From an uncultured Hormoscilla sp. (lineage in GTDB: Bacteria > Cyanobacteriota > Cyanobacteriia > Cyanobacteriales > Desertifilaceae): DNA of 64,000 bases. The notes under the pieces were generated by a model, which saw only the letters and a list, made by a program, of their open reading frames with translations, searched no databases and was not told the DNA's origin. This document shows positions 14,254 to 52,661 of this stretch, piece by piece; within the stretch, counting starts at the first letter, position 1; each line of letters opens with the position of its first letter. The translations under genes and the position numbers were made by a program. The stretch spans positions 6,432,001 through 6,496,000 of the forward strand of contig OZ001293.3 in assembly GCA_963921275.4 (NCBI GenBank). The letters run 5' to 3'.

Positions 14254-14751
14254 TTAAAGTCTACGCCAGCGCCGACCATCTCGATTTAAGAGAAATTCTG
14301 CTTCCACAGGTTCCCAGGTTCCTGCTTCATAAAGAGGAATCGCCTCCGGAGGGGCCGGGGCATCCCAAACTTCCAACAGAGGAGTGAGTACCTGCCAGGA
14401 AGCTTCCACTTCATCTCCTCGGGTGAACAGAGTCTGGTCTCCTAACATGCAATCTATCAGCAGACGACTGTAGGCATCCGTGTTTGGTTTACCAAAAGCC
14501 GTATCGTAACGAAAATCCATATCCACCGATCGGGTGCGCAGGGAATTACCCGGAGTTTTCACCTCAAACCGCATAGAAATCCCTTCATTGGGCTGAATTC
14601 GCAGAGCCAAAACATTAGGATTCATCTGTTTCGCCGCCGACTGGAACATCATATACGGCACTTCTTTGAACTGGATGGCGATTTCCGTTACCTTCTTGGG
14701 CATCCGCTTACCCGTGCGCAGATAAAAAGGCACTCCCTTCCAGCGCCAGTT
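14254..14751 (-). CDS. zwf: Glucose-6-phosphate dehydrogenase, exon 2
   Basis: Begins [16 protein letters not shown]; joins exon 1 in frame to give 509 aa. Confidence 0.95.
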
Positions 14752-15684
14752 GGTCGGGGTCGAGCTGGGAATCACTCCCCAACCCTCCCTTTCGGAACCG
14801 GACTTGCGACTTTCACCGCATCCGGCTACTGGTTGGTAAGCTGTTGTCATCAGTAGGATTATTGGGTTACCCCGTATTCCCCTTACCCTCTGTAATTTTA
14901 CCCCTTATGGTCAATCCTATTGGACCGTTAATGATTTCAGCTCCGGAAGGTATGCGCTGCGCGCACGCTGCGCGATCGCGGAGGGTAGTTCAGCAAACCA
15001 TTCTAGCCGCTCTTCTCTAACATTTCCCCATTCTGGCAATTTATCGGGGCTCTGAACTTTACCCGGCTGAGACTCTAGTCCATATTCATACTTTTGGATT
15101 TCTCCTAAGTTTTGCGACGTGTTAGGGCTACTTTCACCAAAGGCTTCTTACCATATCCGTCCTACGTCTGCATATCCCAGGCATTACCCCAGGCGTTGGC
15201 TTCTTAGAACATCCTTCCTCTTCGCGGCTTGCGCTTTACATCTAACTGGTCCAAATGGGGACAGCTCACGTGAGGTTACTTCGTTCCCTGGTATCATTTC
15301 TCGATGCTTTTAGGTTCCTGCTATACCCCGGGAGTTCTTCGAGTGCGATGCTGGTAAGCAAATACTACCAACACTAACTGCCATTTCCCTTTTGGGCCAG
15401 CGTATAAGCCTTATTCCGCTGGTTCTTATTAACGAGGCTTTCACAGGTTCGCTTGTTCTAACCATGAGCATCTTTCCTAGCGGTGTCACTAGCTTAGGCT
15501 GCTAGCTATCCTACATTTAAGTCCTAGCTCCGCACCACGGCGATGTGACTCCGCAGCACTAAGGACCGGTGTTACCCCCACACCTGGGGAGAGGGAATTT
15601 AACCCCCATGATAACCAGAGTTATCCGGCAAATGAAACCAGACCAGACTTCACCGTCGCCAGTTTACGCCTGAACGAATCGCAC
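14752..15684 (-). mobile_element. ORF-less group II intron in zwf (933 nt)
   Basis: 5' GTGCG at 15684. Domain V TAGCCGGATGCGGTGAAAGTCGCAAGTCCGGTT, then domain VI ending CCCCGACC. Removal restores LYVD|NWRW. Confidence 0.95.
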
Positions 15685-16716
15685 ATCTACATATAACTTC
15701 AAAGCTGCATAAGTGGGAGTAGTTGTATTGGGATCGGCCCCCTCTTCTTCCCGATAGCCCGGCACTTGCTTGCCATTCATCCAACCCGCCGTGTATTGAC
15801 CCCGAATGGCCGATCGATCCAAATTTTCCAAATCTGCTAGGTGCGTCGCCTGGACAACTTTTACCTTTTCACTCCGAATGCTGTCAGCATCCAAGCCGTT
15901 CGGCGGTTCCATTGCTGTCAGACAAAACAGTTGCATCAGGTGATTTTGCACCATGTCCCGCAAGGCCCCAGAGGATTCGTAATAACCTGCCCGCCCTTCT
16001 AGACCTACCTTTTCCGCCACTGTGATTTGCACGTGATCGACAAACTGACGATTCCACAGGGGTTCAAAAATCGCATTGGCAAACCGAAACACTAACAAAT
16101 TCTGCACCGTTTCTTTGCCCAGGTAATGGTCGATACGGTAAATCTGCTCTTCCGCACATACCTGACGCACGATCTGATTCAGCACTTGGGCCGATCCCAG
16201 GTCTCGACCAAAAGGTTTTTCGATTACTAGCCGCTGCTTTCTGGGATCCCGAAGCATTCCGACACTTCCCAGTTGCTGGGTAGCTTCTCCAAAGAATCGG
16301 GGTGCCACAGATAGGTAAAATACCCGATTCCCTCGCGTACCTCGTTGTTCGTCTAGTTCCCCCAAGAATGCTTTCAGCTTCTGGTAGCTTTCCGGTTTGT
16401 CAATGTCCCCAGAACAATAGAATAGCCCTTTAGCAAATCGCGACCAGATTTCTTCTCTACCCAGTCCACCGCCAAACTCTTCCACTCCTATCCGCATCTG
16501 TTTGCGGAAATAATCGTGACTCCAGTCTCGTCGCGCCACCCCCACGATCGTCAGTTCTGGGGGCAGTTTGTGCTCTAACATCATCTGATAGAGGGCGGGA
16601 ACGAGCTTTCTCTGGGTTAAGTCCCCAGATGCACCGAATATTACCAGAATTTGCGGTTCTGGCATCCGGTCATGTTGCAGTCCCACTCGTAAGGGATTTT
16701 CCAATAGCGTTACCAT
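15685..16716 (-). CDS. zwf: Glucose-6-phosphate dehydrogenase, exon 1
   Basis: [29 protein letters not shown]; 344 codons ending LYVD. Confidence 0.96.
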
Positions 16717-16799
16717 CTCTTTTCTTTCTCAATATACGTAGGGCGGGCAGATCGCCTGCCCGTCAATTCAACATTTATGGACCCTTTCCCATGGCTCAA

Positions 16800-17936
16800 C
16801 TATGCTGGCACCAACTGTTTAACCTTGTCTTCTAAGGACTTCATCAGGGTATCGAAGGGCTTGACGAATTTATCAATCCCCTCTTCCAGCAATTGGGCCA
16901 TCACTTCATCTAGGTTGATGTTTACTTCCTTGAGGGTTTCCATCAACTTGTAGGCTGCCTCTACGTCATTTTCCACCCGGTTATCGACATCACAATGGTC
17001 CGTGCAGGCTACGATCGTGCTGGGTGGCAGGGTGTTCACCGTGTCCGGTCCTACCAGTTCATCCACGTACATCACGTCGCTGTATGTGGGGTTTTTCGTG
17101 CTCGTGCTGGCCCACAACAGCCGTTGCACTTGGGCACTTTTAGCCGACAGGGCTTTCCAGCGATCGCTCCGGATAATCTTCTTGTATTCTTGGTAGGCGA
17201 TTTTCGCGTTGGCGATCGCCACTTTCCCCTTTATCGAGAGCAGCTTGGCCTTGGACTCTTCATCAGCAGCAGCCGCCAACATCTTATCAACCCGGCTATC
17301 GATGTTACTATCGATCCGACTCAGGAAGAAACTCGCCACTGAAGCTATTTTGCTAATGTCTTGTCCAGCTGCTACCCTTTTCTCCAAGCCGCGAATGTAA
17401 GCCCATGCTGTCTGCACGTAGCTTTCCACCGAAAACAATAGAGTGATGTTGACATTTATTCCGTCCGCGATCGCCGCTTCCACTGCTGGCAAACCCTCTG
17501 CCGTTCCCGGAATCTTAATCATCACATTCGGACGTCCGATCGCCTGGTTATACCGCCGCGCTTCGGCGATCGTCGTTTCTGTATTTTTCGCAATTGTCGG
17601 CGGCACTTCAATACTCACATAACCATCCAGTCCCTGGGTCGCCTCATAGACTGGCAGAAACACATCACAAGCACCCCGGATATCATCAAACACCAGAGAT
17701 TCATAAATCTCCAGCACCGATTTATCAGCGCCAATTCCTGCTTCGATCTCCTCATGGTAGATTTTGTTACCTTTGATCGCCTTTTCAAAGATTGCTGGGT
17801 TAGAGGTAATCCCCTTAATTCCCCCCGTCTCCGTCATCTCTTTCAGTTCGCCCGACTTGATAATATCGCGGCTCAGATTATCCATCCAGATACTCTGACC
17901 GTAGGCTGAAATTTCTAACAGGTGATTGGTTGCCAT
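16800..17936 (-). CDS. tal: Transaldolase
   Basis: Probable start MATNHLL at 17936; GQSIWMDNL, TSNPAIF, MIKIPGT, LLWAST. Confidence 0.95.
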   Translation of the reverse strand: MATNHLLEISAYGQSIWMDNLSRDIIKSGELKEMTETGGIKGITSNPAIFEKAIKGNKIYHEEIEAGIGADKSVLEIYESLVFDDIRGACDVFLPVYEATQGLDGYVSIEVPPTIAKNTETTIAEARRYNQAIGRPNVMIKIPGTAEGLPAVEAAIADGINVNITLLFSVESYVQTAWAYIRGLEKRVAAGQDISKIASVASFFLSRIDSNIDSRVDKMLAAAADEESKAKLLSIKGKVAIANAKIAYQEYKKIIRSDRWKALSAKSAQVQRLLWASTSTKNPTYSDVMYVDELVGPDTVNTLPPSTIVACTDHCDVDNRVENDVEAAYKLMETLKEVNINLDEVMAQLLEEGIDKFVKPFDTLMKSLEDKVKQLVPA

Positions 17937-17968
17937 GTTTACTCCTCTCTCTCTAACAACATTTTTCG

Positions 17969-18048
17969 GTTGTCCGTTGTCCGTTGTCCGTTGTCCACTA
18001 ACCACTAACCACTAACCATCAACCATCAACCACTAACCACTAACCACT
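17969..18048. repeat. Heptamer short tandem repeats (STRR): (TGTCCGT)n then (ACCACTA/ACCATCA)n
   Basis: Directly visible; similar tracts occur near 8990, 32700, 39000 and 44200. Confidence 0.9.
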
Positions 18049-18348
18049 ATACTTCCAAAGGTATCGATTTGCGCTTTTTACCAGATTGAATGTGTCCGGA
18101 GCGAAGGGGGCCATTTCCGAGATTACCTTGCACTCCACGCCGGACTCCCCCGTTAGCGCAGCGGCAGATTGCTTCGTGCCTCGCAACAAGCTCCGGAGGG
18201 CTAGCAATCAAAGGCGCGTTAGTTAAGTAGGAGATTGCTGAGGGGAGAGGATCTCATTGAGCACAAGAATCTCTCAATTATCCCTCCCCATGACAGATTG
18301 GCTAGTTGAATTTGCGCAGTTCATGACCTTTCGCAGTATAACTAATTT

Positions 18349-19467
18349 CTAAATCCTCGCAGCTGCACCCTTCTGCACAAACGACTCCACTAGGGCCACA
18401 TCATCTTTACTGCCAATAATCAGCGGCGTTCTGGCATGCAGTTTATCTGGCACCACGTCCAGAATATTCTGAGTGCCTGTGCTAGCCCTTCCTCCCGATT
18501 GCTCGATTAAAAAGGCTAAGGGAGCTGATTCGTATAGCAATCGCAATTTGCCCTCTGGTTTCTTCACCGTCCCCGGATACAAAAATACCCCGCCCTGGAA
18601 TAATATCCGATGGAAATCTCCCACTAGCGCTCCTCCATAACGAGCAGTATATCCTTCATGGCGATGCACGTAGCGGATATATTCCCGCATCGATTCATCC
18701 CACTGCCAGAAGTTGCCCTCATTTACACTATATATCGGACCGTGGGTTGGAGTTTCGATATTTTCACGACTGAGGATAAACTCTCCCAAGCTCGGGTCTA
18801 GGGTGAAGGCATGCACCCCCGTGCCGATCGAGTAGACTAGCATTGTACTGGGACCGTACAGAATATAACCTGCCGCCATTTGTTTCCGTCCATTCGCTAG
18901 CAAGTCCGCTGCCGTTCCATCTATATCCATCCCTTCTTGCTGGCGGATCGCGAAGATCGAACCCACATTCAGATTGATGTCCAGGTTGGAAGAGCCATCG
19001 ATCGGGTCATATATCAGTGTATGCCGTCCGATCGGGCAATTTTCCGGGATATAATATGGTTTTTCCATTTCCTCGGAAGCCATGCGGCAGACCAACCCGC
19101 TCTGCTTGAACACTGATATAAACACGTCATTAGCATAGACATCCATCTTTTTGACGGATTCTCCCTGCACATTTACCGTCCCTGTAAATCCCAGGGCATT
19201 CTCTAATAAACCCGATCGCGACAGGCGGCGCGATATGATCTTCCCCGCCAGGGCGATCCTATTCATCAGCGCACTTATATCTTGCGCGTCTGCCGAGAAG
19301 CTATGCAGTTGCTGCAGTACGTGACGAGACAGGGTCATGCAATCCCTGTCTAGGGCCCTTTCTTCCGCTATCTCTACATGGGTATCTACCATGTTTTTTC
19401 TTCCTACTTGATTGGCACTTGGTCTGGCGATGGCCTCCTGGGGCTTTACCTCTCCAAAGGCCGTCAT
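18349..19467 (-). CDS. fbp: Class 1 fructose-1,6-bisphosphatase (start may be at 19392)
   Basis: [20 protein letters not shown]. Confidence 0.95.
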
Positions 19468-19609
19468 ACCTCCTGTTCTAAACCTTTCTCCCTATATTAG
19501 GAAACCAATGCCCGATGCTCTCTAACCTTAATATCAATTAAAGATTCAAGTAATCCCCACTGTTTTAGCCTGGGGATAGATGAACTCAGCCCGCCTTGTA
19601 TGTTGGAAT

Positions 19610-20172
19610 AGAGAAGGACATCAGGGTAGAAAGCTATCGGCAATGGCGATCGCCCGCCATAGGTCAATTAAACCTGTCGCGCAGATCGAGACACCGACGG
19701 CGCTCGTGTTTTTACTAGACAACCGAATGGGATCTGGAGTCTCTGTAACACAGATGAACTCGTATTCACAAGGGTGGTTGCTAGGAAAATATTTCTCCCC
19801 TGTACCGGTAGTAACTGCTAACATCACCAGTGAACTCAGGAAACATCACCAGTCAAGGAAAGGAGGCCATATGAATCTACCAGCCCTCGGTATAGCAGAT
19901 TTCTGGCTCTTCGGTACGAGGCAAAACTCGTCTGTGTAAGACCGGTAATGCTCAACTTCGTAAGGCATTGTATATGCCAGCTATGTCAGCACGACGTTTT
20001 AACCCTGTGATCGAGGTATTTTGCGTTCGCGCAGCGTGGCGTCAGCAATTCGCCTGCTGGAAAGGAGTAAAGCGAAGCGAGCCATTATTTGTGCGGCCAT
20101 GCATAAGCTATTGTGTCTGGCCTATGGGGTCTTGAAGTCGGGAAAACCGTTTGACCTCAACTATGCAAAAAA
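19610..20172 (+). mobile_element. Internally deleted IS110-family element (boundaries approximate)
   Basis: AGGAGG at 19861 and ATG at 19871 (MNLPALGI) joined directly to the C-terminal SGSSVRGKTRLCKTGNAQLRKALYMPAM..AAMHKLL..YGVLKSGKPFD. Confidence 0.8.
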
Positions 20173-20317
20173 AAATGCTCGCCTCTTCATAGTCTTGTTT
20201 CGTTTCCACTCGCTGCCATTCGGGTTCAAAGCCGCAACGGCGCAGTTCATACACCGTCAGTTCGGCTTCCTCTGGCGAGTCTTCCAGGATTAAAACTCTA
20301 ATTGCGGGCTTTTTCAT
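20173..20317 (-). pseudogene. Response-regulator receiver N-terminal fragment
   Basis: IRVLILEDSPEEAELTVYELRRCGF; cut off at the IS110 remnant. Confidence 0.7.
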
Positions 20318-20363
20318 CGCTAATTGCTCATTTGACTGTCAACTTTCTCCCTTCACCATCAAT

Positions 20364-20415
20364 TGTCAGCTCTATCGGGGTAATATTGTATTTGAGTACC
20401 CCGATAGAGCTGACA
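20364..20415. repeat. Perfect 19-bp inverted repeat just downstream of glk (terminator or REP-like)
   Basis: TGTCAGCTCTATCGGGGTA-14 nt-TACCCCGATAGAGCTGACA. Confidence 0.7.
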
Positions 20416-20425
20416 GTTTCACCAA

Positions 20426-21439
20426 TTATAACTGGGCGGCACAGATGGCGGCTCCGATCAGTCCTACCTGCTGATTCAATACTATATGCACTGGCACTTT
20501 TTCTAGTAAATTACTGACTCGACCTTTGTCGGTAAATGCCTGCATAAACCCTTCAGACTCTAACAGCTGGTGATTTTTGGCAGCAATGCCTCCCGCGATG
20601 TACAAACCGCCGTAGGGGAGAAGTTTGAGGGCGAGATTCCCTGCTTCTGCACCGTAGGCTTCGATAAACATTTTCATCGTTCGTTCGCTGAGCATATCCC
20701 GCTTTTCCGTCGCTGCTTTGGCAATATCTGCTGGATCTACCTTTTTTTCCTCACCTTCGGACTCCTCTTTCCGAACAGCATCCTGTATTTCTGGAGCTGA
20801 TGTAATCTCTTGGGGATGCTTTCGCAAAAACTGATTTATTGCCACAATCCCCGGACCGGAAATTACTCGTTCCACGGAAATCCTACCTACATCATATTTC
20901 TTCTCCAGGTATTTCAACAGTTGGAATTCTGATTCATTCCGGGGGGCAAAGTCTGCATGACCGCCTTCTGTGGCAAAAATCCGATGGTTGCTTCCCTGGT
21001 TAATTAAAAATGCTTCTCCCAAACCCGTACCCGCACCGATAACTGCGATCGGGGCTTCTGTGTCTCGTTCTCCTGCTTGCAGAGTGTCGATATCTGAAGA
21101 CTTTAAGCCTAACACTCCATAACCGATCGCGGCAAAATCGTTAATTAAACTCACCTGGCCAATTTCCATTTCTGTTTCCAGGCGTTTATTATCCAGTAGC
21201 CAAGGGAGGTTCGTCAGCTTCGCCCTGTTGTTGACTACTGGACCCGCGATCGCGAAACAAGCTTTTTCCGGCTTTGCTTCCCTCCCCGCCAGAAACTCCT
21301 GGACGATCGGCACCAAGTCCGGGTAATTTTGACTTGGATAAGTCTCTTCATGTAGCACTTCATCCCCATCTGCTGGTGCTTTCACCAGTCGCAAAATAGT
21401 TTTCGTACCGCCGATATCTCCTGCTAGTAATAATGTCAT
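20426..21439 (-). CDS. glk: Glucokinase
   Basis: LAGDIGGT, INDF, GAGTGLG, EGGH, GGLYIAGGI. Confidence 0.95.
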   Translation of the reverse strand: MTLLLAGDIGGTKTILRLVKAPADGDEVLHEETYPSQNYPDLVPIVQEFLAGREAKPEKACFAIAGPVVNNRAKLTNLPWLLDNKRLETEMEIGQVSLINDFAAIGYGVLGLKSSDIDTLQAGERDTEAPIAVIGAGTGLGEAFLINQGSNHRIFATEGGHADFAPRNESEFQLLKYLEKKYDVGRISVERVISGPGIVAINQFLRKHPQEITSAPEIQDAVRKEESEGEEKKVDPADIAKAATEKRDMLSERTMKMFIEAYGAEAGNLALKLLPYGGLYIAGGIAAKNHQLLESEGFMQAFTDKGRVSNLLEKVPVHIVLNQQVGLIGAAICAAQL

Positions 21440-21533
21440 GTCCTTTGTTCCTTGTTAGTTGTCAATTCTCCTAGTTCCCTGGCGACCGCCAGGGAACGCA
21501 ATTCTATATTTTCTGTTTACCAACCTTTAACCT

Positions 21534-22178
21534 TTAGTTAAACCGGATTACCGATTCAGTTTGAGTCAAATGGGAAGTATCCCCATTCAATTCCATGAAC
21601 CATTTTGCCTCCTGACGTACCACTTTCACCAAGCAACATAGGGTCCCATTGATATCCGTGGTGGCCAGAGCAGACACTAATCCCATTGTCATCCCGATCA
21701 CAGAGGCCCCGTGTCCCACGAGCAGAATATCTCCAGTGGACTCAGCAGCCAAAATTCTGGCAATTTCTCCGGCCCTTGCCATACAATCACGTTCAGTTTC
21801 GGGATATTTTGGTTTTATCCTAGAATGATAGCCCATGTCAATCCTGGGGAATTGGGCGGCTAAAGCTTCGAGGGACTGGGTTTCTGGATCGGAGTCCATC
21901 CAATCAGGATTCAGCCATTCACACAACCCCCACTCCAGTTTTAGCGGTAATGAGAGTGTTTCTGCTACTATATGTGCGGTTTGTGTGGTGCGCAAGAACG
22001 GAGAGGCAAATATCCCAGAGATCCTCGAGTCTTTTAGACGCTGCGCTAGCTGCTGTGCTTGCACTAGACCATCGGCAGACAAGGGCGGATCGTAGGGACG
22101 TTCGGCCCCGTTGAACCATCCGGGGTTGACGAAGTCTTCTCGGTTGGCATGTCGGGCTATCCAGACTGTTTGAGACAT
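21534..22178 (-). CDS. Histidine phosphatase family protein
   Basis: ARHANR, SPFLRT, LLVGHG. Confidence 0.9.
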   Translation of the reverse strand: MSQTVWIARHANREDFVNPGWFNGAERPYDPPLSADGLVQAQQLAQRLKDSRISGIFASPFLRTTQTAHIVAETLSLPLKLEWGLCEWLNPDWMDSDPETQSLEALAAQFPRIDMGYHSRIKPKYPETERDCMARAGEIARILAAESTGDILLVGHGASVIGMTMGLVSALATTDINGTLCCLVKVVRQEAKWFMELNGDTSHLTQTESVIRFN

Positions 22179-22334
22179 AGTTAGGACTATCAGCTTAGGG
22201 CGATCGGCTTCTATTCTAGCAATTTCCTAAAAAATTACCAACTTGAAATTAAAAATTAATAATTTAGTTGTCAGTAGTCAGTAGTCAGTGGTCTTAGAGA
22301 TAGGTTGTCAATTTACAACCTACAACTTACAACT

Positions 22335-22775
22335 TCAGATGGTCAAATATGTTTCTATCGGGCCATCGGGCAAAACCTGCAATCTTTGGTTTTTCAAGTC
22401 TACCTCAATTCCCAAGGCTTCCATGGGAATAACGCCCAACAGTGGATTACTTCCCTCTGGTAGTTCCAGACATTCAAAGGTTCCCTCTCGTCCTTGTAAG
22501 GATATTTTTACATCTTGAAAAATGCGTGCCTGACTAATGCCAGTAGCAGTTTGGACAACCACTTCTCTCAGTATTGTCACACCTAGTTGAGCAATAATAT
22601 TCGCTGGCAAGCACAAGGTTGTGGCTCCCATATCCACCAAGACGTTATTTACGGTAACAGACCGTACTTGGTCAGGTGCAATCAGGCCATTTTCAGCATT
22701 AGCCTGATCTATCCGATTTGTGACCGCTAGGGTCGTCGTAACTTTTCCCATTGATTGTTTGGTAGTTGTTTTCAT
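22335..22775 (-). CDS. Clan AA (retropepsin-like) aspartyl protease family protein
   Basis: Probable start MKTTTK at 22775; LVDMGATTLCLP and PLLGVIPMEALG. Confidence 0.75.
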   Translation of the reverse strand: MKTTTKQSMGKVTTTLAVTNRIDQANAENGLIAPDQVRSVTVNNVLVDMGATTLCLPANIIAQLGVTILREVVVQTATGISQARIFQDVKISLQGREGTFECLELPEGSNPLLGVIPMEALGIEVDLKNQRLQVLPDGPIETYLTI

Positions 22776-22859
22776 GATTTGATTATAGCTTGTTTCTCTG
22801 TAAAGGACAAGATCTTTGTGAGGCGATCGCCCTTGACCATCAGCCACACTAATAACGTA

Positions 22860-23461
22860 TAGTACCATCAGGCATAATTGCTCCGGACAGGTTAGCGCTT
22901 TCCAGGTTGGCACCCTCCAGGTTGCTACTCGCCAGGTTAGCATTCGACAGATCCCCATTCGCAGTAACTGACTGATGGGAAGATTATACCAGTAAATTCC
23001 CTTCCTTGTGCCCAGCAGGGCGATAAAACTGAGAGTAGTCAGTAGGACTGAAGCCAATTTTCTGGGTTGGGTTTCTGACTTTTCTGACATAGTGCGATCG
23101 CCTACAACATTAATTGGTTTGAGGGCTGACAGGGCAATATCAGCATTAGCATAGCGCTGTTTCACCTGGGGAGAGGTCATCTTAGACCAGTCAATGAAGC
23201 TGGGACTGAGTTGGCCTGCTAATTCCTTTAAGTTAGTAATGTCAACAGAATCGGTGCCCGTCAGTAAGCAAATTAATGTCGCCCCTAAACTATAGAGGTC
23301 TGAGGCTGCCGTGAGGACCCGCTCGAACATTTCTTCTGAGGGCATAAAGCCTGGTAAGTGATGCGCCCTCCCGACCAGTTGCGCCCCAGTTCTCTAATTA
23401 TCTCATAGCCGTGGCCGCAAAAGTCAGGATATTTGGATATTGTTGATTGGAGATTCGGCAT
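22860..23461 (-). pseudogene. Ser/Thr protein kinase with a pentapeptide tail, largely deleted
   Basis: YEIIRELGRN..GGRITYQA joined to ASDLYSLGATLICLL; the catalytic core is missing. Confidence 0.7.
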
Positions 23462-23542
23462 TTTATATTCTGTTTTTAACTTGCGTTTGATACGATTCAA
23501 GACTGAGTATTTGTGACAGAAAGTTTCGCAAAGTTTATTCCC

Positions 23543-24121
23543 TCATGAGTTCAATCCTGGTACCTTTTCATAGATATCTGCCATCGGGCAGCAAAAGTCA
23601 ACACTTGCCAAGTGGACTTCTTCTCCGGGACCGTAGGGATAGAGAACCCAGCGTCCCTCTGCATTCAGGCGGAAACATTCTACCCTCATCCGTTTTTGAG
23701 ATATCAACACATACTCTTGCAGAGTTTCTATGAGTCTGTAGTTGGCAAATTTGTCACCCCTGTCGAAACCTTGAGTTGTGGGTGAGAGGACTTCCACAAT
23801 CAGGCGAGGGTAGCGAATGAACTGTTCGTCAGGATTTCTGTCGTCCCTGGCATCACAAGTCACCTTCACATCGGGATAATAAAATACATCAGCTGCTTCA
23901 ACTCTCACTTTCATGTCTGACGAGTAGACACTGCACCCAGTACCCCGGACATGGCTTCTCAACATTGCTAGCATATTGACTGCGATCTTATCATGGGCTT
24001 TGCTTGCCCCTGACATCGCATATACTTCCCCTTGTCTGTACTCGTGCTTAATGGGACTGATTTTCTCACCTTCTAAATATTCCTCTGGCGAGATGTAGGT
24101 ATCGCTTTTACTCGCAATCAT
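23543..24121 (-). CDS. Uma2 family endonuclease
   Basis: KHEYRQGEVYAM, YYPDV, IVEVLSP. Confidence 0.9.
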   Translation of the reverse strand: MIASKSDTYISPEEYLEGEKISPIKHEYRQGEVYAMSGASKAHDKIAVNMLAMLRSHVRGTGCSVYSSDMKVRVEAADVFYYPDVKVTCDARDDRNPDEQFIRYPRLIVEVLSPTTQGFDRGDKFANYRLIETLQEYVLISQKRMRVECFRLNAEGRWVLYPYGPGEEVHLASVDFCCPMADIYEKVPGLNS

Positions 24122-24244
24122 CTGGTTGGCCTCCTCTTCTATTCTACCCGATCGCCTCATCCTTTGTCAATATCTCGTTCCCAGGCGGGCACCTGAGAAC
24201 CTCCTTCTCAACTCTCCATAAACCGGCGTTCTTTTTTCATTTTA

Positions 24245-24817
24245 TCATGAGTTTAACCCTGGTACATCTTCATATATATCTGCGAGCGGGCAGCGAAAGT
24301 CAACACTTGCCAAGTAGACTTCTTCCCCTGGACCGTAGGTATAGAGAACCCAGCGTCCCTCTGCATTCCGGCGGAAACATTCTACAGTCATCCGTTCTTG
24401 AGATATGAGTACGTATTCTTGGAGAGTTTCTATTAGTCGGTAGTTCGCAAATTTTTCATCCCTGTCGAAAGCTTGCGTTTTGGGAGAGAAGACTTCCACG
24501 ACTAAGCAGGGATAGCGCTTGAAGTATAGAGAATCTTTGTCCCGTGCATCACAAGTCACCTTCACATCTGGATAATAAAATACATCTGCTGCTTCAACTC
24601 TCACCTTCATGTCTGGCGTGTATACACTGCACCCAGTACCCCGGACATGGCTTCTCAACATTGCAAACAGATTTACTGCGATCCTATCATGGGCATCACT
24701 TGCCCCTGACATCGCATATACTTTCCCTTGCCTGTACTCGTGCTTGATCGGACTGATTTTCTCACCTTCTAAATAGTCCTCTGGCGAGATGTAGGTATCG
24801 CTTTTACTCGCAATCAT
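24245..24817 (-). CDS. Uma2 family endonuclease (recent tandem duplicate)
   Basis: Nearly identical to 23543-24121. Confidence 0.9.
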   Translation of the reverse strand: MIASKSDTYISPEDYLEGEKISPIKHEYRQGKVYAMSGASDAHDRIAVNLFAMLRSHVRGTGCSVYTPDMKVRVEAADVFYYPDVKVTCDARDKDSLYFKRYPCLVVEVFSPKTQAFDRDEKFANYRLIETLQEYVLISQERMTVECFRRNAEGRWVLYTYGPGEEVYLASVDFRCPLADIYEDVPGLNS

Positions 24818-24849
24818 CTGGTTTGGATCCTTGACTTTTTCTCTATTCT

Positions 24850-25144
24850 ACCCGATCGCCTATTGCCATTTTCAATTTTCCATTCTCAATTTTACTCTTA
24901 ATCCGATCGCGACCATCAATAGCAGACTTAAAATCAGGCTTAATATCAATTGCCTTTTCATAGTAAGGGATCGCCTCTTCATGTCGTTGCGCTCTAGCAC
25001 GTAACCACAGCCATACCAAGACTCACAGTCATTTTGTTTCATTTCCAGAGCTTTCGAGTAAGCCAAAGCAGCTTTTTCATAGCAATGTAATTCTTCGAGA
25101 GTATTGCCCAGTTTATACCAAGACCGATGTACGATCGGCTTCAT
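24850..25144 (-). pseudogene. TPR protein fragment
   Basis: WYKLGNTLEEL..YSKALE; frameshift near 24990. Confidence 0.6.
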
Positions 25145-25250
25145 TATTTTGGGGCGGGGAAGAAGTAACTTGGCGATCTAAGGCAGTAAGTACCTTGGAC
25201 TTTGAGACCCGATCGAGTTACAGGATATTCATCCAAACTACCAGCAAACC

Positions 25251-25545
25251 ATGAAAGTAATTGAGCAAACGCCCATTCGCCTGACACTCCGTGCTTACCC
25301 CTGGAGTGCCTGGATCGTTGGCAGCATTTGGCTTGCTATCGGACTCTATTTCTTGTTTGTGATATTTATAGGCGCGATCGCACTTTTTATCGGACTTCTC
25401 TATCTCCTGCTTGTCGCTCAAATCGAAACCTGCTATATTGACAAAATTCTGGGATTAGTAATCTTGACAGAATATGGATTGTGTGGTACAAAAGTCAGAG
25501 AATATGCGATCAAGGCGATCGGGACAGTAGAAGTAGAACAGTACA
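25251..25545 (+). CDS. Hypothetical two-TM membrane protein, exon 1
   Basis: MKVIEQTPIRLTL, a hydrophobic hairpin, then VEVEQY plus one base before the intron. Confidence 0.8.
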
Positions 25546-26379
<834 letters not shown>

Positions 26380-26564
26380 AAACCCGCAGCAAAGGTCATA
26401 CTAGGGTTGGCTACCGCACAGTAATAGTGCTGAAAAGGGGCGATCCCGTACCTGTTACTGTTCGCTACAAAAGTTGCAGCAAAAGTCAACAAAAAATAGC
26501 CGATCGCATCCGCGCCTTTATCCACCGCACCCATCACTTGACGGGACAAAATGTCGTGTCGTAA
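26380..26564 (+). CDS. Hypothetical membrane protein, exon 2 (spliced product 159 aa)
   Basis: In-frame continuation KTRSKGHTRVGYRTVIVLKRGDPVPVT..QQKIADRIRAFI..*. Confidence 0.75.
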
Positions 26565-26833
26565 GGGCAGTACAAGTATAGCGCCCCGTTAAACATCTCA
26601 GCCAGACTTTCTCCCTAAATGGCCTTGGCCTCCAAGGTCGCAGCCTGCGAATACGCGCCCCTTAACAATAGAGATATTTTATCCAAGAATAACTTCGGAA
26701 CTCCCGGGATTGACTGAGTCAATCCCGGGAAAACTCATTCATTTCCAGGGGGAACTGTTTATTTCCAAGAATAACTGAATCATGCCACCGAGTCCGAGAG
26801 TCATTCAGTGGCGTCACAACCTTTTGCTTTGAC
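26525..26833 (+). repeat. About 300-bp dispersed repeat; inverted copy at 58068-58367
   Basis: Direct comparison of the two segments; both contain an internal palindrome. Confidence 0.85.
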
Positions 26834-27080
26834 CTAATCCAAGATTACCTCAGGGCAGTTGAGTAACTCCAAGGCCAGAGCAAGCACCTCCAATGCCGGA
26901 GTAAGATCAGGAGTGTAGTCTGGCGCCCATTGGCAAAAAGAGCCCCTCCAGCCCCCCCCCTTCGGCTAACGCTCAGGGACCACCCCCCGCTAGGGAGCGC
27001 TCGCCGGCCACTGACCAGGGGTGTAGTCATAAGTAGTTAATAGCCGGGTGCATCTCAGATACATATATAGCCCGCGCCGG

Positions 27081-27210
27081 TGGTCCCTGAGCGTGGTCCC
27101 TGAGTGTGATCCCTGAGTGTGATCCCTGAGCGTGGTCGAAGGGAAGTCGAAGGGAAGTCCAAGGGAAGTCGAAGGGAAGTCCAAGGGAAGTCGAAGGGAT
27201 CCGAAGGGTT
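27081..27210. repeat. 13-bp (TGRTCCCTGAGYG) and 11-bp (CSAAGGGAAGT) tandem repeats nested in a REP-like element
   Basis: Directly visible; an uninterrupted version of the host element lies inverted near 41935-42040. Confidence 0.8.
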
Positions 27211-27347
27211 CATGTAGCCGGACCCTAAAGGGTTCGGGCCGCTCAAAAAAAAATTCAGAGCCGCACCCATAATTAGCGGATATATGATATATACTAATAG
27301 TAGGCCCCTGCGAGGGGATAACCGCTAATAAAGCACATAGAGAAATT

Positions 27348-29948
27348 ATGGCTATATTCAATGTTAGTACAGAAGCAGAACTCTCCCAAGCCATTACCGA
27401 TTCCAGGAATAATGGTATGTCAGATACCATTAACATCATGGGAGATATTACCCTGACCGGGTTGCTACCTCATATTGAAGAAGACGTCGGTCTCACGATA
27501 GAAGGAGACAACAACGTCATTGATGGCAACAACCAACACCGGCTGTTCTTTGTCCTCGACGGTAAAGTCAATTTCAACGAGCTGATCTTTAGGAACGGCC
27601 GGGCCCAGGGAGGTAATGGCGTCAGCGGAGCAGCAGGCATGGGCGGTGCCCTGTTTATCTATGACGGGACCATCACTGCGACCAATAGCACTTTCGAGAA
27701 TAATAGCGCCATTGGTGGCGACGCCGATTGCATCATCAAGATTGATTCTGCACTATCTAGTGGCAGTCTAGTAGGTGGTAATGCTAACTTTATCACTCCT
27801 ATTCCTGCTAATGATGGCGACGACGGCAAGGACGGCAGCGAGGACGGCGAGGACGGCGATTTCGGCGGCAACGGCGGCGACGGCAGCAGCTTCGGCGACG
27901 GCGGCGACGGCGGCTTTGGCGGCAACGGCGGCAACGGCGGCTTTATAGACTTTTGCGGCGGCCGCCGCTGCGGCTTTGGCGGCGGCGGCAGCAGCGGCAA
28001 CGGCGGCTTCGGCGGCTTCGGCGGCGGGGGCGGCATCGGCAACGGCGGCGGCGGCGGCTGCTTTGGCGGCGGCGACGGCAGCGACAACTTTGGCGGCCGC
28101 GGCGCGGGCATGGGCTCCGCCATATTCATTCGCTCAGGCACACTTGAGATTTCCAACAGCAGTTTTAACAGCAATATCGCCTTTGGTGGCACTGGCTATA
28201 ACTCCGGCCAAGGTCTGGGGGGCGCCATATTCGCCCTGCACCGCCTCACCAATACCAACGGGAACAACCAAGGCATGCCCGACGCTCTGCCGACCGTACT
28301 CTTTAGAAATAACCTAGAGTTCTCGGGTAATATAGCCGGAAACGTAAATGGAAATACCATAGACCTTAATAATATGGATGGGGTCGAGCCGGGAATCGCT
28401 TCCCGACCCTCCCTTGAGGAACCGGACTTGCGATTTTCACCGCATCCGGCTACTGGGTACTAGGCCCTTTTCATAGGTAGACTTAATAGGAATTACTTCC
28501 GTTAGCCCTTGCCGCCTGTCTTTTCTTCCCTTTCCTGGTTTAGCGAGTGGTTGTTCTGATAACCGTTAGTATCACCATTTTCAAGTCAGTTTTACCAGTT
28601 ATCCATACCTTATCCTCCACTTGCGTTTCGGATTAGTTCCGTGGCTTTTTAGGATTACTCATTCCAGCAGCTTCCTAGTATCACCGACCCACGTCAGCGC
28701 TGGCTACCCAGCATCATCTACATTACTGTAGATGTTATCCCAGGAATTACCCCGGGCATTCGCTTCTTGGGCCATCCCTTGAGGAACCGGACTTGCGATT
28801 TTCACCGCATCCGGCTACTGGGTACTAGGCCCTTTTCATAGGTAGACTTAATAGGAATTACTTCCGTTAGCTCTTGCCGCCTGTCTTTTCTTCCCTTTCC
28901 TGGTTTAGCGAGTGGTTGTTCTGATAACCGTTAGTATCACCATTTTCAAGTCAGTTTTACCAGTTATCCATACCTTATCCTCCACTTGCGTTTCGGATTA
29001 GTTCCGTGGCTTTTTAGGATTACTCATTCCAGCAGCTTCCTAGTATCACCGACCCACGTCAGCGCTGGCTACCCAGCATCATCTACATTACTGTAGATGT
29101 TATCCCAGGAATTACCCCGGGCATTCGCTTCTTGGGCCATCCCTCCCCCCGTGGCTTGCGCTTAACATCTAACTTGTCCTGATGGACAGCACACGAGAGG
29201 TTACTTCGTTCCCTAACAACATTTCGCGATACCTTTAGGTCCACACTATACCCCGGGAGCTATTTGAGTACTATATTAGCCAGAGTCTAAAACTAATACT
29301 AGCTACCATTTCTTTTTTAGGCCAGCGCATATAGCCTTATTTCGCTGGTTCCTTATAACGAGGCTTGCACATGTTTGCCTGCTCTAACCTTGGATATCTT
29401 TCCTAGCGGCGTCACCGGCTTAGGCTGCCAGTTATCCTACATTTGAGTCCTCGCTTAGCACCACGATGATGTCGCTTCGTAGCACCGAGGACCGGTGTCA
29501 CCCCCGTACCTGGGGGGAGGGGAATTTAACCCCCATGCGGTCAGAGTTCCCGGCTAATGAAACCGGGCTAGCGTTCCGTGTTTGACCACGTTAGGCTAGA
29601 ACGAATCGCACAGACTCCATTGGGTTAACAGGAGAAGATGAGAGGAACCTACTTGTCGGCGGCAGTGGAAATGATACCCTGATCGGCGGAAGCCGAGGAG
29701 ACTACCTTATCGGAGGAGAGGACGCCGATATTTTTGTTCTGAGGCCAACCACGGGTGCGGATCTCATCGTAGACTTTGAAAATGGCACGGACTTGATACG
29801 GCTAGCAGAAAGTTTGAGTTTCAATGATTTGGAAATCGTCCCTCAGGGCCAAAACACAGTGATTAACTATGAAGAGAAAACCATGGCCACTTTGTGGGGG
29901 ATTAATTCAATCCTGATTAATAGCGATGATTTTGCCATGGTAAATTGA
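27348..29948 (+). pseudogene. Glycine-rich secreted protein with an RTX/calcium-binding C-terminus, interrupted by an antisense intron
   Basis: Joining 28375 to 29612 gives ..DLNNI DSIGLTG..VGGSGNDTLIGG..GGEDADIFVL..DLIVDFENGTD..* ending at 29948. Confidence 0.85.
28376..29611 (-). mobile_element. ORF-less group II intron, antisense to its host gene, with a 365-nt internal tandem duplication
   Basis: GTGCG at 29611; domain V present twice; ends CCCCATCC at 28376. Confidence 0.92.
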
Positions 29949-41619: not shown

Positions 41620-42110
41620 AAACTCGGGGGACAGCACTACCCCCGAGACATCGTACTCGCACAAAAGGGGAGACGCTGGCTCCTGGCCTTCCGATTTTTC
41701 CGGAACGGTAGACGCGCTCATTCAAAGTCCGATGTCACCACTTACAAGAGTCGGACCGATCGCGCAGGGGTGTGGTCAAAACCCGTTGGTAGGAGGCCTC
41801 GCCTTCTGTGCGCCCCGGTCGCTCGATGTCTCCCGGGAGCTCGATGTCTCGGGGGAGCGCTAATCGCACTACCCCCGAGACATCGTAGTCGCACTACCCG
41901 GGAGATATCGTAACCGCACTACCCGGGGCGCACAGCCCGAACCCTAAAGGGTCCGGCTACAGGAACAAAGCCCGCCTGCGCGGGCTATTTACACGCATCT
42001 AAGATGCACCCGGCTATCAACTACTTGTGACCGCACCCAAGAGACCGCTCGCGTGTCTACTCGCACAAAAGGGGAGACATCGTACTCGCACAAAAGCTTA
42101 GACATCGACG
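41620..42110. repeat. Cluster of nested small palindromic repeats
   Basis: Several GCACTACCC, GAGACATCG and GCACAAAAGGGG modules plus REP-like units. Confidence 0.8.
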
Positions 42111-52166: not shown

Positions 52167-52661
52167 TGTCCAACCTCACTAAGCAAAATATAGCCCGCGC
52201 AGGCGGGCTTTGTTTGTCTGGCCCCACCCCTCGTTCCCACGGCTCTGCCTGGGAACGGGTTCCGGCGGTGGTGGCGACGCAAAAGTGAGATGCGCCCCCA
52301 CAACTCCTCCAAGGGTAATAGGAAAAGAGGGCTACCGGTTCTGAAGGGGAAGTCTGACTATAACCGGTGGTGACGAGCGCTCCCGGTTACAGGGTTACAG
52401 GGAGTCTGGGGGTCGTCTCGATGTCTCCTGTGTGCCGTTCCCGTAGGGTGGCGCAGCCATGTCCCCTGGGACAAGAGCTCTGGCAGAGATATCGAAGTCG
52501 GATTAGGCAAACAACAGTCGTATAATTGCGTTACATAACTTAACAATAATTAATATAGCAAGGGTAAAGGTTCGGTTATATTTAGTGGTTGAGAAAGAAC
52601 GAGAAAAAATTTCCTCGGTGCGATCGCCCTTATCGGTGCGATCGCCCATTCATTCTTTAGG

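Follow-up and report, generated by a model that had tools for sequence, protein, structure and literature searches.

Hundreds of protein-less group II introns with site-matched guides in a Hormoscilla chromosome, probably served by maturases of a second intron lineage

Introduction

How do three group II introns that carry no gene for a reverse transcriptase (RT) come to occupy three sites of one stretch of DNA, each with a guide loop that pairs with its own 5' flank? The question is raised by 64,000 nucleotides of the genome of an uncultured Hormoscilla sp. (GenBank contig OZ001293.3, positions 6,432,001 to 6,496,000), here called the window, in which one such intron interrupts zwf. Bacteria usually hold few group II introns, mostly outside housekeeping genes. 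A preliminary description of the window had regarded the three as members of a spreading, non-autonomous lineage that changes its guide loops to gain new sites and borrows a maturase encoded elsewhere. Our analysis places them in a lineage of 370 copies, lineage A, without an open reading frame (ORF) for an RT. We propose that lineage A picks its sites by 13 guide bases and that the RT-maturases of a second lineage, lineage B, likely act in trans to splice it and copy it into DNA, a reading to which we assign a probability of roughly 0.7.

Results

The three elements of the window are group II introns without a protein gene, of subgroup IIB. They all begin with GTGCGATTCGTT, align with one another across domains I-III, and give Rfam Intron_gpII matches above the cut-off at their 3' ends (47.7, 46.6 and 44.4 bits); the subgroup is indicated by the 5' GUGYG and by domains V-VI with the AGC triad and the bulged A. 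Domains V-VI fold well in comparison with shuffled sequences (z -3.0 to -4.0), and no own-strand ORF of at least 90 amino acids lies inside any of the three. The boundaries first assigned to them are exact, being backed by a contiguous zwf profile match, by empty sites in congeners and by an empty paralogous joint for 25545-26380. Copy 1, in zwf, is a mosaic whose final ~110 nt derive from another family. Copy 3 is an ordinary 871-nt family member with an internal duplication of ~365 nt, the junction of which, near 28779, occurs once in the genome; a check of contigs for the reality of this duplication gave no verdict, because repeats collapse there.

The reading of the variable loops as the exon-binding sites EBS1 and EBS2 of non-autonomous introns was borne out. 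EBS1 pairs with the exon at 6/6 positions in copy 1 (ATTTGC with GTAGAT, two G-U pairs), at 5/6 in copy 2 (TGCACT with AGTACA) and at 6/6 in copy 3 (AGACTC with GAGTCT), just as first described. The second loop, formerly set against exon positions -12 to -9, is indeed EBS2, but its register is 5 nt against -9 to -13 (4/5, 4/5 and 3/5 pairs). Two further single-base pairings, EBS2a with -14 and EBS3 with +1, match in all three copies. Exon recognition by EBS1, EBS2 and EBS3 is characteristic of group IIB introns (PMC2882425), and the EBS2a pair of IIB1 and IIB2 introns (PMC8643678). In domain I folds of three families EBS1 falls within a hairpin loop, partly paired in one of them; folded in isolation, the guide region gives no signal above shuffles (z -1.4 to 0.2).

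The expectation of many more copies was met on a large scale. A profile made from the 3' ends of the three introns found 501 domain V-VI sites, every one on the chromosome (contig C1). Pairing of 5' and 3' ends, with nested copies cut out round by round, yielded 435 full-length introns of 475,474 bases, or 6.9% of C1, a figure that includes a few insertion-sequence pieces inside introns; 66 starts and 66 ends stayed unpaired. Lineage A accounts for 370 copies and the RT-encoding lineage B for 65, and the two are colinear in domain I, with consensus sequences 68% identical (264/390 positions). An ORF of at least 150 amino acids is present in 60 of the 65 B copies as against 4 of the 370 A copies; none of these four has YADD, and their sequences read like transposases. 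In 65 lineage A representatives no ORF remnant was found beyond overlap with domain V, and RT sequence lay downstream of one of 31 unpaired A-type starts, where it is a lineage B fragment. Lineage B, for its part, includes 31 copies with an ORF of at least 540 amino acids and YADD; 15 of these have no insert nested in them. Examples of lineage B protein loci are C1:4097676-4100073 and 5689045-5691459. One full-length B protein has RVT_N, RVT_1, GIIM and HNH domains, and among solved structures it is most similar to the Thermosynechococcus elongatus maturase 6ME0 (E 1.5e-115). With RT, maturase and HNH domains and with CL proteins as its closest relatives, it has the features of a CL-class intron-encoded protein and may resemble CL2.

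Group II introns have AY as their 3' end consensus, the branch A standing at -8. Lineage B, which ends in AAT with the branch A at -8, fits this; lineage A ends in ATCC, GACT, GACC or TAAT with the branch A at -9, one base longer, which we regard as a variant end within the class. The lineage A junction is confirmed by empty sites and by nested insertions with uninterrupted siblings, and the gamma-gamma' pair with the last intron base is present in 21 of 21 parsable families (20 Watson-Crick, one G-U).

Guide and target covary across the genome. We compared every alignment column with fewer than 30% gaps with exon positions -16 to +3, taking one copy from each of 75 lineage A families (clusters at 96%). 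The top 13 signals are six columns against -1 to -6 (EBS1), five against -9 to -13 (EBS2) and single columns against -14 (EBS2a) and +1 (EBS3), with z between 7.1 and 10.2 and the next-best column at 4.1. The absence of covariation in other copies, named beforehand as an outcome that would refute the guide reading, did not occur. In 61 families, a set that excludes copies with unparsable guides and six misparsed rare copies, the mean is 10.0 Watson-Crick pairs out of 13, compared with 3.9 after shuffling (maximum 4.7 in 2000 shuffles); the families are related by descent, their insertion sites independent. EBS2a pairs with -14 in 56 of the 75 families (23.6 expected). Lineage B gives pairing signals at the same exon positions. 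A purine stands at -15 in 71/75 lineage A and 29/35 lineage B cases, with no RNA partner in the covariation scan, and a preference at 3' exon position +5 was not seen in either lineage. In domain IV, covarying helices are kept across 50 families.

Part of the original proposal has to be revised here. About 60 distinct EBS1 sequences exist (63 strings, a few misparsed), so that guides do differ between families, but they are not reprogrammed copy by copy: EBS1 is invariant in all 144 copies of family 0, to which copy 3 belongs, at 121 distinct sites, and in all 74 copies of family 1, that of copy 2, at 62 sites. These two families thus gained 218 of the 370 sites without any guide change. Their pairing is loose (8.9 and 8.7 of 13, against 10.3 in rare copies, p 1e-7). 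Guide change marks instead the birth of families, the guides being the part of the intron that diverges fastest between them: in 40 family pairs that are 85-97% identical, the EBS columns agree at 34%, as against 81% for other equally variable columns. Entire guide blocks are common to otherwise different families, and a simple segment test finds 15 mosaics among 50 representatives, the zwf copy included; we infer that such blocks arise by recombination or template switching.

The mobility is recent. Families 0 and 1 are very young bursts, with 63 of the 144 family 0 copies identical and a mean of ~1 change per copy in that family. Insertion is precise and guided by the EBS sequences, and it leaves no target duplication. 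Four of four congeners have unoccupied zwf and eno sites, and the site in the ribonucleotide reductase gene is likewise empty in all three with the junction covered. The possibility that genome G004 shares the eno insertion was considered and rejected, its junction being empty. Lineage A itself is present in four of four congeners, with only short patches outside the genus (40 relatives). One domain V pattern has 366 matches here, against 24 and 31 in two congeners with good assemblies, which makes the large expansion specific to this genome among those checked; the same counts led us to discard the 214-254 congener "candidates" as copy numbers. RT matches number 93 here and 79, 46, 8 and 3 in the four congeners. 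Ten distinct congener elements parsed end to end are all ORF-less, which indicates that ORF loss is old; eight distinct congener guides match their sites (9.4 pairs, 4.2 when shuffled), and one element 92% identical to family 0 has a different EBS1. Among 400 other genomes of the class, with two candidates scored per genome, there was no ORF-bearing A-type intron. One exact A-type pattern had no match in genome contigs; a second was found there at no fewer than 25 loci, the matches listed all lying in Hormoscilla records, and at none in metagenome contigs.

Copies also sit within each other. Nested lineage A introns occur in 26 of the 65 lineage B copies. The nine copies of lineage B family 6 (e.g. 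C1:1056960-1061068) mostly carry a family 1 intron at position 238, in sense orientation, and most have in addition a family 0 intron at 2013, antisense and within the ORF; the ORF-less introns are in this way invading their likely helpers. Position 768 of family 0, in domain IV, has itself received family 0 copies (C1:1326652, 4741955, 5180973, 6029677 and 6410359). Head-to-tail introns with no exon between them are found at C1:5447656-5450268 (three), 824934-826675 (two) and 524521-526114 (two), as expected from intron circles or recombination. A divergent group II intron RT of 595 amino acids is encoded at 103-1890 of locus L113 (C1:1775402-1777189); it has YADG at the catalytic motif and, from its sequence, is possibly a splicing-only maturase. 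Contig C3 (31,420 bases) has a G+C content of 17.6%, compared with 47% for the chromosome, and probably derives from another organism.

To count host genes for both lineages, we removed the introns from the chromosome and ran a crude ORF caller. Among 370 top-level elements, 88 lie in sense and 49 in antisense orientation within ORFs of at least 150 amino acids, 70 are in shorter ORFs and 163 are intergenic; 65 further elements of both lineages lie inside other introns. When only unique sites flanked by no fewer than 30 codons on either side are counted, 58 sense and 28 antisense insertions of lineage A remain in ORFs of at least 150 amino acids. All these are upper estimates, because the ORF caller mis-sets some starts. 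Profiles were run on 60 sense and 20 antisense hosts. The sense hosts include zwf, enolase (eno), the large subunit of glutamate synthase, the adenosylcobalamin (B12) ribonucleotide reductase, RecJ, BicA, RF3 (prfC), RibD, QueG, EctB, EctD and HpsA. The insertion junctions are at C1:1800237/1801137 in eno and at C1:848631/849546 in the reductase gene. A second copy is absent for zwf, eno, the ribonucleotide reductase, ribD and queG; a search with PF02867 found, class III enzymes aside, no other ribonucleotide reductase. As in cyanobacteria generally, these single-copy, intron-bearing genes are probably needed. In the window, copy 1 splits zwf in frame, and the TIGR00871 matches of the two exons abut with neither gap nor overlap (Table 1). 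The host of copy 2 is a 159-codon ORF (25251-26564) with a 98% identical paralog elsewhere. A contig that joins 25545 to 26380 was at first a candidate for splicing; it has 12 differences and is accounted for by the empty paralog at C1:4111499. Copy 3 is antisense in a plus-strand gene, so that splicing cannot restore that gene.

Several further features of host genes were seen. Two introns each are present in the ORFs at C1:2195297-2201136, 3350903-3353784 and 6725388-6727990. A gene of the PRK/uridine-kinase family (C1:4361809-4363204) contains an antisense family 0 insert, and a 45% identical paralog exists. In this genome and its relatives the ribonucleotide reductase gene has long inserts, with open frames of 1157-1594 amino acids and split matches, which are possibly inteins. 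Contig depth is raised near the zwf operon, at ~16700-17150, 18070-18520 and 19440-20350, and this points to other dispersed repeats. Two isolated Rfam CRISPR-DR28 matches barely above the cut-off, 10 kb apart (41964-41987, plus; 52191-52214, minus), are probably a dispersed palindromic repeat, not an array.

Table 1. Introns, guide elements and host-gene parts in the window (positions from its first base)
Feature	Position	Strand	Description
Copy 1 intron	14752..15684	minus	933 nt, ORF-less group IIB; sense strand of zwf, between codons 344 and 345
Copy 1 EBS1	15358..15363	minus	ATTTGC, pairs with exon -1 to -6
Copy 1 EBS2a and EBS2	15425..15431	minus	EBS2a 15431; EBS2 15429-15425, ATAAG
Copy 1 EBS3	15323	minus	T, pairs with exon +1 (A)
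Copy 2 intron	25546..26379	plus	834 nt, ORF-less; 74-copy family 1; sense strand of host ORF
Copy 2 EBS1	25866..25871	plus	TGCACT
Copy 2 EBS2a and EBS2	25797..25803	plus	EBS2a 25797; EBS2 25799-25803, TCTAG
Copy 2 EBS3	25906	plus	T
Copy 3 intron	28376..29611	minus	1236 nt (usual length 871); 144-copy family 0; antisense to plus-strand gene
Copy 3 EBS1	29283..29288	minus	AGACTC
Copy 3 EBS2a and EBS2	29351..29357	minus	EBS2a 29357; EBS2 29355-29351, TAAGG
Copy 3 EBS3	29248	minus	T
Tandem duplication in copy 3	28415..29142	minus	~365 nt, domain III to domain V; limits approximate
zwf 5' exon	15685..16716	minus	344 codons; TIGR00871 positions 2-322
zwf 3' exon	14254..14751	minus	165 codons and stop; TIGR00871 positions 323-485
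Copy 3 host gene, 5' part	27348..28375	plus	no Pfam match
Copy 3 host gene, 3' part	29612..29948	plus	glycine-rich repeats; weak Peptidase_M10_C match (E 2e-5)

Discussion

The proposed mechanism runs as follows. The transcript containing a lineage A intron would bind a lineage B protein and splice; the freed intron RNA would then reverse-splice into DNA sites that match ~9-10 of the 13 guide bases and have a purine at -15, and would there be reverse transcribed. New families would be born when guide bases mutate or families exchange a block, either of which would give access to a fresh group of sites, and a family tolerant in its pairing could afterwards fill dozens of them without further guide change. 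Sense copies in core genes would be tolerated through splicing, and antisense copies would act as knock-outs. Borrowing of the maturase from lineage B is the likely route: lineage A has no RT, and lineage B has 31 full-length RT ORFs. The EBS2a pair is reported to be required for DNA integration and dispensable for splicing (PMC8643678), and its retention therefore supports an RT-assisted route into DNA. Exon position -15 is reported to be read by related proteins (PMC2882425). The interrupted single-copy core genes must, it is likely, splice their introns out with an enzyme from a different intron lineage.

Several observations weigh against this scheme. The presumed helper is distant: A and B share only 40-280-nt patches by BLAST, and their 68% identity in domain I compares with 85-100% in the in-trans pairs reported as tested (PMC2882425). 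Domain V departs from the canonical pattern used here in 38/75 mid-size and 33/56 rare copies. Of the family 0 insertions in genes, 32 are sense and 22 antisense (p 0.28 against a motif-based expectation; 23 and 17 under stricter limits), so that selection for splicing is not evident there; nor do the 18 sense and 4 antisense insertions of family 1 (p 0.08 against the motif-based expectation) speak for a strong role of selection. Neither an empty nor a spliced zwf junction appeared in four runs of DNA-like character. Five RNA runs matched at 6-16% of sequence words. Finally, three or four divergent RT genes, with 36-41% identity to the B protein, provide alternative candidate helpers. The altered domain V, such as GTCGCTCTTCAGGTT, is common in mid-size and rare lineage A families (e.g. 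C1:841823-842749), among them one of 16 copies; in that family, at least, a mispaired domain V did not block spread.

It could be supposed that lineage A needs no maturase, a structured, ORF-free domain IV stabilising the ribozyme, and that it reverse-splices alone before any cellular RT copies it. The covarying helices of domain IV and the well-folded domains V-VI would suit such an intron, and a protein-independent ORF-less intron is reported from Clostridium tetani (PMC4424553). The EBS2a pairing, kept in three quarters of the families, is nevertheless reported to need an RT (PMC8643678), and the purine preference at -15, for which the scan offers no RNA partner, is common to lineage B. We consider splicing without protein unlikely.

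The helper might also be a divergent RT that does not belong to lineage B. Alternatively, it might be encoded by an A intron with a cognate RT, either lost not long ago or absent from the assembly. The divergent RT ORFs, located at C1:611097, 1775429, 4923107 and 5172164, provide candidates for the first version, and an assembly completeness of 96.7% leaves some room for the second. However, the one divergent RT examined has YADG instead of YADD, and the ORF-less state of all ten congener elements makes the loss old where the bursts are very recent. A helper of this kind seems to us quite unlikely.

A third proposal is that insertion comes first and the guides are then re-tuned to fit the occupied site, through selection or through copying from the target, each old copy founding a new specificity. 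It would explain why EBS columns diverge so strongly between close families, why rare copies match their sites better, and why EBS2a is matched more often in rare copies (49/56 against 57/121) although splicing does not need it. The same pattern would result if older families targeted more strictly or if the copies with the best match survived, and the EBS1 of the two large families has stayed constant despite mismatched sites, so that nothing is rewritten at insertion. Re-tuning is in our view improbable.

That the copies are dead or spread as DNA in the manner of miniature inverted-repeat transposable elements, that their hosts are pseudogenes in a symbiont genome undergoing decay, or that the copy number is an assembly artefact is highly improbable, since the 28 antisense insertions well inside ORFs of at least 150 amino acids, which would suit this account, are outweighed by precise, guide-following insertion without target duplication, by zwf and eno exons that are in frame and 96-98% identical to those of congeners, and by a contig depth over families 0 and 1 of roughly 50-180x that of the flanks in four runs of one study, a rough ratio that does not equal copy number but argues against an artefact.

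Mobilisation of lineage A by lineage B proteins thus stays the preferred reading. A wider picture, which we put forward tentatively and hold to be somewhat less probable than its opposite, is that of a genus-wide ORF-less lineage served by generalist maturases of another lineage, its guide block reshuffled by recombination, in an organelle-like invasion whereby dozens of host genes, those for enolase, glucose-6-phosphate dehydrogenase and the B12 reductase among them, would rely in common on a single splicing apparatus acting in trans.

Models of how eukaryotes arose require that group II introns multiply, lose their ORFs, enter host genes and come to share splicing proteins. This chromosome displays all those steps together and offers 370 guide-target pairs of natural origin; two of its bursts are very recent, and the sites are empty in its congeners. 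The sharing of maturases across lineages and the rules of guide change become directly testable, and the system may yield compact, readily retargeted introns. On the practical side, automatic annotation will label genes such as zwf and eno as broken in this genome.

The mechanism by which ORF-less introns proliferate under guide targeting is already known from T. elongatus, and the targeting logic is textbook knowledge. In that species, as reported by Mohr, Ghanem and Lambowitz (2010, PMC2882425), 28 TeI3/TeI4 introns in six EBS families make up 1.3% of the genome, and driver proteins mobilise the ORF-less members, a mechanism that was tested experimentally. The likeness to these IIB1 introns, TeI3 being ORF-less and TeI4 ORF-bearing, is close: ORF-less copies are more numerous than RT-bearing ones, families with distinct EBS sequences lie at matching sites, the helper introns are themselves invaded (twintrons), targeting is relaxed with a purine at -15 (PMC2882425), and EBS2a is retained (PMC8643678). 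The Hormoscilla chromosome differs in its 435 introns and 6.9%, in its about 60 guide sets against six, in the lesser identity of its helper candidates in domain I, in its dozens of host-gene insertions, single-copy genes included, where the TeI introns are reported as mostly intergenic, and in its mosaic families. A closely related ORF-bearing sister and ORF remnants in deleted copies, which belong to the TeI3 type, were not found here.

Other bacteria share single traits with it. In Trichodesmium erythraeum, likewise a marine cyanobacterium, ORF-less introns lie within protein genes and help from a trans-encoded maturase is reported (Pfreundt and Hess 2015, PMC4649490); 17 introns, 10 of them ORF-less, were shown to be spliced in vivo there, whereas here more than 20 times as many were found in the sequence. 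Arthrospira platensis offers another cyanobacterial expansion of CL-type introns; with 101 it ranked first among the 1,790 representative bacterial genomes that Miura et al. surveyed (2022, PMC8919778); the count here, obtained with a different pipeline, is about four times higher and consists mostly of ORF-less copies. The phytoplasmas PR34 and PR08 are host-restricted bacteria in which group II intron loci take up more than 4% of the genome, but those 52 and 28 loci are RT-bearing, mostly mitochondrial-like and contained in about 0.6 Mb (PMC13577128). The density per megabase of PR34 is equal or higher, so that only the absolute count is a candidate record here. According to a review (PMC4424553), ORF-less introns are rare in bacteria and almost always occur together with related ORF-bearing introns. 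A literature search for "Hormoscilla" with "group II intron" returned no papers, the word "intron" is absent from the main texts of two Hormoscilla genome papers, and no published account of this expansion was found, subscription journals lying outside the coverage. What is new in this chromosome, compared with the systems above, is the scale of the expansion, the lack of a cognate RT-bearing sister, the mosaic guide blocks and the load carried by core genes.

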